Assembly: GCA_965656375.1 (NCBI GenBank)
Contig: CBFHKH010000001.1
Coordinates: 644,291-708,290 of the forward strand
DNA from: Minisyncoccia bacterium
Lineage (GTDB): Bacteria > Patescibacteriota > Minisyncoccia > Phycocordibacterales > UBA9973
Reading direction: 5' to 3'
DNA length: 64,000 nt
The notes beneath the pieces were generated by a model, which saw only the letters and a program-made list of their open reading frames with translations, made no database searches and was not told the origin of the DNA. The position numbers were made by a program, and so were the translations under genes. Shown piece by piece: positions 50,042-50,364 of this stretch (positions are counted from its first letter, which is position 1; every line of letters starts with the position of its first letter).

Positions 50042-50277
50042 AGGAAAAGTATAGCAGATAGGGGGAGGGAGTTCGAGTTTTAAATTTAGGCGGTGAGAGC
50101 TTCGAAACTTACAGTTTCAGTACACCTCTTGAAAGAGATTCGCCGATACTGCGGCAGGTATTTTTCGACTGAGTAAACTCAGTAACGAAAAATCTTTCGA
50201 ATCTCGCACGTACGTAAAGCAGTTTGCGTACTCGCCTCCGCAAATGAAAAAAGCCCCATAAGGGCAATTTCCATTTG

Positions 50278-50364
50278 CGGAGGCGGTGAGATTCGAACTC
50301 ACGGACCGCGTAAACGGTCTCTTGTTTTCAAGACAAGTGCCTTCAACCACTCAGCCACACCTCC
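50278..50364 (-). tRNA. tRNA-Ser (anticodon UGA), class II with long variable arm
   Basis: Acceptor GGAGGTG/CGCCTCC, anticodon stem CTTGT/ACAAG with loop CUUGAAA, variable arm GACCGTTTACGCGGTCC, T-arm GTGAGTTCGAATCTCAC. Confidence 0.75.

Follow-up and report, generated by a model that had tools for sequence, protein, structure and literature searches.

A 64,000-nt stretch of a Minisyncoccia genome, referred to below as the window (coordinates are counted from its first letter), contains a cluster of hairpins on one side of a tRNA-Ser gene and a short open reading frame for a GIY-YIG nuclease on the other. Two questions arise from this arrangement: what the hairpins are, and whether the nuclease has anything to do with them.

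The hairpins at tRNA-Ser are one half of a longer element

The hairpin features predicted beside tRNA-Ser are all present in the sequence (Table 1), and their arrangement is real and non-random. The 186-nt stretch at tRNA-Ser folds with a free energy of -82.9 kcal/mol, compared to -46.8 ± 3.9 kcal/mol for shuffled sequences (z = -9.2 as RNA and -9.8 as DNA). The extent originally proposed, 50165-50285, contains these features but ends too early on the left, where the element reaches about 80 nt further, to ~50088. The complete element is ~190 nt long (~50088-50276) and lies on the minus strand, directly 3′ of tRNA-Ser(UGA); the hairpins noted at first are its tRNA-proximal half. The strand also had to be reassigned, as the folding strand throughout the family is the tRNA-sense strand (here minus) and not the plus strand; the U-G wobble that had been read on the plus strand in the P2 stem at Ser is the sole exception among 791 P2 pairs.

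Read on the minus strand, the parts follow each other in the order trailer CAAAUG, GCCC/GGGC hairpin with U6, CAUUUG-CGGAGGCG, AG, P2, CGUG, GCGAGAUUCGAA, AGA, P4, UACC, P5 and direct copies. The AG dinucleotide flanking P2 is kept in about 70-90% of the aligned copies. A terminator scan matched GCCCTTATGGGGC followed by TTTTTT (50265 to 50253, minus strand), so that a G+C-rich hairpin with an immediate U-run, as in an intrinsic terminator, explains the apex of the structure and only the apex. The direct repeat at Ser has decayed to 11 nt (AGGCGGTGAGA at 50088-50098 and 50281-50291), and modules related to the direct-copy region also occur in four other loci (L233, L146, L180 and L230).

Table 1. 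Coordinates of the tRNA-Ser element and its parts, the neighbouring GIY-YIG gene and the two further copies in the window
Feature	Position	Strand	Remarks
GIY-YIG ORF	50374-50613	-	79 aa, catalytic domain only; Pfam PF01541, E = 8.3e-17
tRNA-Ser(UGA)	50277-50364	-	ARAGORN (tga); Rfam tRNA 59.3 bits
Palindrome arm 1	50278-50297	-	T-loop, T-stem 3′ strand, acceptor 3′ strand and discriminator of tRNA-Ser; inverted repeats I1, I3
Trailer and terminator-like mini-hairpin	50247-50277	-	GCCC-UUAUG-GGGC then UUUUUU; apex of the long hairpin
Inverted Watson-Crick copy of trailer CAAAUG, acceptor 3′ strand and discriminator	50233-50246	-	reads CAUUUG-CGGAGGCG; repeat I1
P2 hairpin	50211-50230	-	8 bp, CUGC loop (GCAG on +); flanked by conserved AG and invariant CGUG
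Inverted copy of T-stem 3′ strand and T-loop	50196-50207	-	reads GCGAGAUUCGAA; repeat I3, 10/10 complementary to 50288-50297
Conserved core	50141-50195	-	AAGA(U), P4 (UUUUUCG...CGAAAAA around a variable hairpin), UACC, P5 (UGCCG-CAGUAU-CGGCG); alignments A1, A2; RNAalifold
Partly decayed direct copies of tRNA 3′ end	50088-50142	-	direct repeats D2, D5, D8
CGAAUCUC	50135-50142	-	direct copy of tRNA 3′ end
GGUGUACUG...UUCGAA module	between 50088-50098 and 50135-50142	-	
UCUCACCGCCU	50088-50098	-	direct copy of tRNA 3′ end
ATCTTTCGAATCTC	50192-50205	+	
TACGTAAA-GCAG-TTTGCGTA hairpin	50211-50230	+	
CGCCTCCGCAAATG	50233-50246	+	
25-nt loop	50247-50271	+	encloses GCCC-CATAA-GGGC at 50253-50265
CATTTGCGGAGGCG	50272-50285	+	
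Second copy	47873-48105	-	behind tRNA-Arg(GCG) 48031-48105; R1 model 88.1 bits at 47873-47994
Third copy	43147-43336	-	behind displaced 42-nt tRNA-Lys 3′ part (43295-43336); R1 model 55.4 bits at 43147-43259

The element recurs behind tRNA and tmRNA genes of Patescibacteria

As the original prediction had it, the feature at tRNA-Ser is one instance of a recurrent tRNA-gene element. The R1 covariance model finds three copies in the window (88, 85 and 55 bits) and no other significant match there. Exactly three matches to the motif CTGC-N8-CGTG-N5-WTCGAAAGA lie in the window, each behind a tRNA 3′ end; 0.22 matches are expected with up to 3 mismatches, and three were reached in none of 100 shuffles. 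At tRNA-Arg, the inverted repeats of 26 nt and 12 nt are both perfect, and a partial tandem core lies further left (47794-47819). At the Lys copy, the 42-nt fragment repeats without a mismatch the 3′ part of an intact tRNA-Lys (44711-44784) located 1415 bp upstream; the 1415-bp insert between the two repeats parts tRNA-Lys from its element, and the intact gene now ends without one. The three copies differ in P2, P4 and P5 and so are not recent transpositions.

The family extends well beyond the window. A first pattern, run against species-representative genomes with 16 specified bases and a variable gap, was too loose: 111 of the 119 loci were chance matches, recognised as such because they had no P2 stem, and there were 8 real copies, with the stem, in 7 loci. 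The displayed record titles for six of the real matches name Paceibacteria, Saccharibacteria and Vogelbacteria. A tighter pattern matched 113 metagenome loci and no viral contigs. Directly behind a tRNA called by ARAGORN we find 75 of 114 motif-defined copies, and 10 more lie behind the 3′ end of a tmRNA. The R1 covariance model adds to the three copies in the window 134 further ones in 110 Patescibacteria loci, again mostly directly behind a tRNA or tmRNA gene. The host genes comprise at least 22 tRNA isoacceptors (for Ser, Lys, Arg, Tyr, Gly, Leu, Trp, Phe, Asn, Met and Ile) as well as tmRNA. Among the 145 tRNA and tmRNA genes called by ARAGORN in the 110 loci, 89 are followed by an R1 match, 7 by another tRNA and 40 by no copy, with 9 too near a contig end to be scored; the element is therefore optional.

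The element is about 120-200 nt long and has no ORF of its own; most copies immediately follow the 3′ end of a tRNA or tmRNA gene, and coding regions yielded none. The core elements AG (variable in a minority), CGUG, TCGAAAGAC and GUACC are conserved at fixed spacing in Paceibacteria, Saccharibacteria and Vogelbacteria. The element matched no Rfam 15 family at the gathering score, and a search in E-value mode yielded, besides the tRNAs, only spurious sub-threshold matches. Nor was it matched in collections of phage and plasmid records, and neither the element nor the linkage of GIY-YIG genes with tRNA-Ser is described in the literature that we searched. Apparently, the element is undescribed.

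The GIY-YIG gene is linked to tRNA-Ser and not to the element

The original prediction placed the GIY-YIG gene 10 nt from the 5′ end of tRNA-Ser and raised the idea that the nuclease targets or partners the hairpin element in the style of a homing endonuclease. The position beside the 5′ end is correct, but the spacing is not, as the stop codon lies 9 nt away. There are reasons to take the idea seriously: GIY-YIG domains are found in homing endonucleases, the gene and the element adjoin in the window, and L233, the locus of the closest relative, carries both. However, a tblastn search with the window protein against the 110 other element loci (661 kb), a set in which 26 copies lie at tRNA-Ser genes whose upstream sequence extends for 350 nt or more, found no homologue, which speaks against a link between the element and the gene. 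The gene is 2-7 kb distant from the other two copies that the window contains. The protein itself has the GIY-YIG catalytic domain and lacks the C-terminal DNA-binding domain of a homing endonuclease, and NCBIfam returned only a weak match, to a group I intron endonuclease family (17.6 bits versus a cut-off of 56).

The position of the gene beside tRNA-Ser is nevertheless conserved. The protein belongs to a large conserved Patescibacteria family (870 matches, many at 70-85% identity), and the gene lies directly 5′ of tRNA-Ser in all eight of the independent homologue clusters that we fetched, or in nine of nine contexts when the window is included. In these eight clusters, a tRNA-Ser gene (tga, gct or cga) follows on the same strand after 0-87 nt, and the neighbourhoods are otherwise unrelated. 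Seven of the eight clusters have no element, L233 alone having both. Since the gene is found 5′ of tRNA-Ser mostly where there is no element, it is tied to the 5′ side of tRNA-Ser rather than to the hairpins. This is the outcome that the original prediction had named as telling against it, namely no co-occurrence and a GIY-YIG gene that relatives without the element keep at this position. We consider a homing partnership between the two very improbable; the juxtaposition of GIY-YIG gene and tRNA-Ser is a real, conserved linkage and a phenomenon separate from the element. The SegB gene of phage T4 is a free-standing GIY-YIG homing endonuclease gene in a tRNA cluster. Like genes of the SegB type, the window gene abuts a tRNA gene, in neighbourhoods that otherwise differ among homologues; unlike them, it encodes a 79-aa catalytic domain without a DNA-binding domain, and its linkage is with the 5′ side of tRNA-Ser rather than with the element.

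The arms are inverted and direct copies of the tRNA gene 3′ end

In the tRNA sense, the element begins with the stretch from T-loop to 3′ end of the tRNA gene, followed by a terminator, an inverted copy of the acceptor 3′ strand, P2, an inverted copy of T-stem and T-loop, AAGAC-P4-UACC-P5-GA and a second, direct copy that spans the middle of the T-loop to the tRNA 3′ end. In 49 of 96 copies, 12 of 12 positions of the inverted arm are complementary to the T-loop and T-stem 3′ strand of the tRNA upstream. Where there is a tRNA, the median length of the hairpin made by acceptor plus trailer is 16 bp. Of 22 cases in which the acceptor stem of the tRNA has a G•U pair, 19 have in the arm the base that pairs with the 3′ strand in Watson-Crick fashion and 1 has the base of the 5′ strand, so that the arm is an inverted replica of the gene 3′ end and not a duplicate of the tRNA 5′ half. 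The inverted copy also continues into the trailer, which is not part of the tRNA (CAAATG/CATTTG at Ser).

In 35 of 67 unique copies, the final 14 nt of the tRNA recur downstream in direct orientation with up to 2 mismatches (exactly in 25); identity with the tRNA gene begins within the T-loop and goes no further than the 3′ end of the tRNA. These downstream copies decay: at positions that distinguish the two direct copies, the inverted arm agrees with the upstream, functional one 32 times and with the downstream one 5 times. Between tRNA and arm, 51 of 64 unique tRNA-linked copies (80%) have a canonical terminator of A-run, hairpin and T-run, and the gap from tRNA to core has no room for a promoter. 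The T-run terminator is absent from 12 of the 64 unique spacers, 9 of which also have no stable hairpin, and an extended -10-like sequence, TGCTAnAAT, precedes some solo copies.

The structure is conserved and belongs to the tRNA-sense strand

Covariation was assessed on a 43-sequence alignment (A2). RNAalifold recovers P2, P3, P4 and P5 from this alignment, with double-sided changes in 18 of 26 pairs. In the full structure model 84.7% of cells are paired, compared to 66% in shuffles, and the covariation score is 0.50, compared to 0.17 in shuffles (none of 500 reached 0.50) and ~0.11 when the partners are slid against each other. The helices differ in how well they are kept. P2 is paired in 99.7% of cells, all eight of its pairs covary, and it is always located exactly at the junction of acceptor and T-stem. 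Pairing is 99% for P4, 86% for P5 and 83% for P3; P4 and P5 have compensatory changes, in P5 in all five pairs. P1, formed by the acceptor mimic and the downstream copy, is paired in just 51% of cells, and P1 and P3 are both perfect in many copies (for example L136, L154 and L219). On the tRNA-sense strand there are 151 potential G•U pairs, versus 24 on the opposite strand, which points to the tRNA-sense strand, as RNA or as single-stranded DNA, as the folded species.

Copies form arrays, enclose cargo and show signs of turnover

The P4-P5 cores of elements at tmRNA, Lys, Arg, Ser and Tyr genes are 95-98% identical. In 49 of 69 cases the nearest-neighbour core is located at a different tRNA, and neighbours at the same tRNA are enriched (20 observed versus ~5 expected). 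Tandem arrays of full and partial units, each ending in the same tRNA 3′ segment, are found in L120, L148, L152, L201 and L219, and junctions are seen in L178 and L219. In L248, tRNA-Arg is followed by a variant unit, a gene for a 270-aa membrane protein and a second unit, with three copies of CCTGCCGGGATCACAA marking the boundaries, and in L233 a cupin gene lies between two units. The orthologous tRNA-Ser site of L233 has the same architecture as that of the window, with a different terminator loop, P2 and core. A solo inverted copy without a tRNA occurs in L249, and a large serine recombinase gene lies beside tRNA-Ser in L236.

Clustering of the ORFs that flank the 114 motif-defined copies, within up to 6 kb, revealed no conserved protein family consistently beside the element, and no recombinase family or reverse transcriptase; there is also no recombinase among the 29 window ORFs that were checked. 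A search for filled and empty sites via a conserved 203-aa neighbour gave no clean pair, as synteny is too variable. Measured against an integrase-borne island at a tRNA gene, the element has the flanking direct repeat and no integrase inside.

An insertion module at the T-loop is the preferred reading

Several identities can be set aside. The element is not a tandem tRNA duplicate with a 5′ acceptor-strand copy, by the same count of 19 versus 1 at G•U positions. A T-arm with an insertion in a directly oriented T-loop is rejected because the segment is the reverse complement of a T-loop (AATCGAA for TTCGATT, GTCGAA for TTCGAC). A retroelement primer-binding site is rejected because the complementarity enters the genomic trailer and not CCA, and there is no reverse transcriptase nearby. 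ORFs do cross the element, yet what is conserved is paired nucleotides with compensatory changes and not codons, as a peptide would require. The genes downstream are unrelated between copies, which does not suit a T-box or other leader of a downstream gene, and an IS110 bridge-RNA-like guide is not indicated, since the two segments that match the tRNA cover one and the same side of the T-loop and are paired together, and the neighbourhood has no DEDD recombinase. Group I introns occur in the T-loop of tmRNA genes (PMC11915505); the element is too small for one and gives no Rfam intron match.

Our leading interpretation, to which we give a probability of roughly 45%, is that the element is a miniature, non-autonomous, non-coding insertion module at the T-loop of tRNA and tmRNA genes in Patescibacteria. 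Such a module would enter the gene by site-specific recombination within the T-loop, bringing along a terminator and a new tRNA 3′ end in place of the old one (the attL side) and pushing the original 3′ end downstream, where it would persist as the decaying direct copy (the attR side). The tRNA-sense single strand, either DNA or a read-through transcript, would fold back on itself, pairing the inverted copy with the tRNA 3′ end that the element carries and rebuilding a duplex replica of the target site within one strand. P2, P4 and P5 may be structural or recognition modules, and a putative recombinase would act in trans.

A number of observations support an insertion module. The element follows 89 of 145 tRNA and tmRNA genes, which are classic integration targets; direct 3′-end copies run from the T-loop to the end of the tRNA, units form arrays, and cargo lies between repeats. 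The inverted copy is Watson-Crick, extends into the trailer and tracks the upstream copy (32 versus 5 positions), the structure is that of a single strand (G•U pairs 151 versus 24, covariation 0.50 versus 0.17), and in 80% of copies a terminator precedes the core with no room for a promoter. Presence is optional, near-identical cores are found at different tRNAs, the Ser site of L233 carries a variant, and no conserved protein gene accompanies the element. Against the insertion module, there is no linked recombinase, the element is absent from viral contigs and from phage and plasmid records, no clean filled and empty pair was obtained, the three window copies differ in P2, P4 and P5, about 20% of copies have no terminator between tRNA and core, and the model leaves the match of the inverted arm to more than 20 different tRNAs unexplained; gene conversion mediated by the hairpin could also keep the near-perfect arms of the palindrome alike without selection.

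The main rival is a host-encoded, tRNA-like non-coding RNA, made by read-through from the tRNA promoter, and the conserved structure bears on it directly: the covarying helices, the invariant junction nucleotides and a 3′ end exactly at the discriminator fit an RNA gene equally well. In this RNA the acceptor-5′ mimic would pair with the downstream copy (P1) and the T-stem mimic with its partner (P3) to yield a minihelix of acceptor and T-arm; P2 would stand where a tRNA has its D and anticodon arms, and P4 and P5 where it has its T-loop. The RNA could be released by RNase P and RNase Z and would then serve tRNA metabolism or be a decoy. Strong covariation in P2, P4 and P5 and the G•U bias towards the tRNA-sense strand are as this reading would have it, as are the downstream copies that stop exactly at the discriminator plus CA, often before a terminator (25 of 67 exact), and the many copies in which P1 and P3 are perfect; the same holds for the 12 spacers without a T-run terminator, 9 of them without a stable hairpin, and for the -10-like sequence upstream of some solo copies. 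However, a canonical terminator stands ahead of the core in 80% of copies, with a gap too small for a promoter. P1 is paired in about half of the cells, and its downstream partner decays, the inverted arm keeping pace with the tRNA upstream. The arm is also strictly Watson-Crick where an RNA helix would tolerate G•U pairs, the element is optional, occurs in arrays and partial units and has been split from the window tRNA-Lys without evident harm, and the Rfam tRNA and tmRNA models give no match above threshold. On balance we consider the RNA unlikely.

Less probable still is that the copies are functionless scars, in which repeated integration, excision and deletion of integrase-borne islands, together with snap-back or template-switch duplication at terminator palindromes, left direct, inverted and direct copies of tRNA ends behind, the hairpins being terminators and debris. 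The tRNA 3′ ends are clearly integration hot spots (the 42-nt repeat and 1415-bp insert in the window, the serine recombinase of L236 and the junctions of L178 and L219), and the decay of the downstream copies fits scars as well. Tandem inversion duplications, which have been described in Salmonella, produce a direct-inverted-direct order. What this reading does not accommodate is a defined core at fixed spacing across Paceibacteria, Saccharibacteria and Vogelbacteria, compensatory changes in eight of eight P2 pairs and five of five P5 pairs, and the invariable position of P2 at the acceptor/T-stem junction; debris would neither covary nor keep cores 95-98% identical at different tRNAs. 

Relation to known systems

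Genomic islands and prophages integrate in the T-loop region of tRNA and tmRNA genes, and remnants without an integrase are known. The use of tmRNA genes as island integration sites is documented (PMC11915505). Like such islands, the element has its targets in tRNA and tmRNA genes, at their 3′ parts, and would restore the gene end and bring a terminator with it; its direct repeat starts in the T-loop, it forms tandem arrays, and cargo genes are found between repeats. It differs in being just 0.12-0.2 kb long without an integrase, in its absence from phage and plasmid collections, and in carrying an inverted Watson-Crick copy of the att segment together with a conserved, covarying core. It appears to be a variant of tRNA-gene-targeting elements that has not been described before.

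Integron attC sites and the attP(+) hairpin of CTX phage, which is used by XerCD, are recombination sites that work as folded single strands, and by analogy they would be the closest counterparts of the proposed fold. As in these sites, the hairpin is strand-specific, the structure is conserved while the stem sequences vary, and the proposed fold would rebuild a duplex copy of the partner site; the P2 branch breaks the symmetry as the extrahelical bases of attC do. In contrast to them, the arms copy the end of a tRNA gene and not a dif or attI core, and cassette-like cargo is seen in few element loci. The signals of attC type (G•U pairs 151 versus 24, the Watson-Crick replica and covariation) would arise equally from an RNA.

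MITEs, REP/REPIN sequences and Rickettsia palindromic elements are small, palindromic, non-coding repeats, and the element resembles them in size, palindromic build, many copies per lineage and non-coding nature. Its terminal inverted sequences, however, copy the local tRNA and are not constant in the family; a MITE has family-constant terminal inverted repeats, on which a transposase acts, and a short target-site duplication, whereas the arms here equal the local tRNA 3′ end.

Permuted tmRNA genes are laid out as T-arm, acceptor 3′ strand, loop and acceptor 5′ strand (PMC11915505). The element has the same order of parts and can form an acceptor/T-stem minihelix, and partial matches to the tmRNA_permuted and beta_tmRNA models are seen at the Arg and Lys copies, below threshold (19-20.5 bits versus thresholds of 47-84). 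Unlike a permuted tmRNA, it has no T-loop, D-region, tag reading frame or CCA requirement, and a complete, normal tRNA lies upstream. With P4 and P5 replacing the T-loop, P1 paired in 51% of cells and no match at the gathering score, the element falls outside the tRNA, tmRNA and tRNA-like families of Rfam clan CL00001.

Implications

Quite possibly, although we propose this tentatively, the element represents an undescribed class confined to Patescibacteria in which both strands of the target are contained in one strand, be it an integrating module that works as a folded single strand (integron-like, with a T-arm attachment site and cassette-like arrays) or a family of tRNA-mimicking RNAs tailored to each tRNA. 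The Patescibacteria (candidate phyla radiation) make up a large, mostly uncultured share of bacterial diversity and have tiny genomes. An element that follows a large proportion of their tRNA and tmRNA genes and is absent from Rfam and from the literature that we searched amounts to a sizeable blind spot in annotation. The motif CTGC-N8-CGTG-N6-TCGAAAGAC and the R1 model provide a ready marker for sites of the element and for the limits of integration events in metagenome-assembled genomes. If the element is an RNA, it would be a new family of tRNA mimics in which the sequence of each member is set by the adjoining tRNA. If it is a mobile module, it would represent a new mode of tRNA-gene targeting, by an element that carries a hairpin replica of its target, and would help to explain the shuffling of cargo genes behind tRNA genes in Patescibacteria.

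GIY-YIG genes lie 5′ of tRNA-Ser

In the window and in all eight independent clusters of homologues (8/8), a GIY-YIG gene of ∼80 amino acids is found 0–87 nt 5′ of a tRNA-Ser gene on the same strand. The anticodon of the adjacent tRNA-Ser is tga, gct or cga, and the neighboring genes otherwise differ between loci. In L240, one of the Patescibacteria loci compared, the stop codon of the GIY-YIG gene is followed by a partial duplicate of the tRNA-Ser 5′ part, and a second GIY-YIG gene is located after the tRNA-Ser. The same locus has an ORF with a weak Pfam match to HNH that ends 10 nt ahead of another tRNA-Ser(tga). 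Since GIY-YIG and HNH ORFs both abut tRNA-Ser, two distinct nuclease families occur directly 5′ of this tRNA.

Possible integration at tRNA genes and a probable replication origin

At L236, the large serine recombinase gene that adjoins the GIY-YIG/tRNA-Ser(gct) pair, ∼170 nt downstream, suggests a conventional integrated element at this tRNA. In the window, the two copies of the tRNA-Lys repeat, which covers the gene from its anticodon loop to its 3′ end, enclose a 1415-bp insert that contains small ORFs only and no integrase; it looks like an integrated remnant with the crossover in the anticodon loop. One perfect match to the DnaA-box consensus, TTATCCACA, comes after the intact tRNA-Lys and another after the displaced Lys element (a copy of the hairpin module found behind tRNA and tmRNA 3′ ends). 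Because yidC, dnaA and dnaN stand side by side, the window probably contains the replication origin. Rightward of dnaA, most genes share one strand; the opposite strand carries the three tRNA genes found at 43–50 kb.

Features in the window and in the loci compared
Feature	Location	Strand or orientation
GIY-YIG gene 5′ of tRNA-Ser	window 50365-50613; loci L233-L246	
ORF with weak HNH match, ahead of tRNA-Ser(tga)	L240 1-526	
Region of large serine recombinase gene, 571 aa	L236 1333-3303	convergent with GIY-YIG/tRNA-Ser(gct) pair
tRNA-Lys exact direct repeat, 42 nt	window 43295-43336 and 44710-44751	
Perfect TTATCCACA, intact tRNA-Lys	window 44661-44669	-
Perfect TTATCCACA, displaced Lys element	window 43139-43147	-
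yidC, dnaA, dnaN	window 20408-24656	yidC -
Direct repeat, 26 nt, 92% identity	window 47794-47819 (partial second copy) and 47896-47921	
Membrane-protein gene, 270 aa, with flanking element units	L248 400-1830	
Cupin gene with flanking element units	L233 3330-4230	

Modules and genes associated with the element

The 26-nt repeat is a second copy, partial and in tandem, of the Arg element's P4/P5 hairpin region, and is followed by a module, GGUCUACUGUCCUCGUAGAGGAAGAUUAUCCUGC, that is also present in L148 and L248. Arrays in L120, L169, L184, L209 and L150 contain further module types in the same frame: a UACU-loop mini-hairpin (CGAWAAG-NNG-UACU-CNN-GGUC) and a longer insert, CGGAGGCUG.CGAGCCGAG.CGGGGUCGCG...UGUGACCGAA. 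Upstream of solo copies, which have no recognizable tRNA, L054, L078 and L170 share an extended -10-like TGCTAnAAT, then ∼50 nt and a degenerate T-arm/acceptor-like segment that leads into the element copy. The membrane-protein and cupin genes are each enclosed by element units and by repeats of the tRNA 3′ end; in its layout, this cargo resembles a cassette array.
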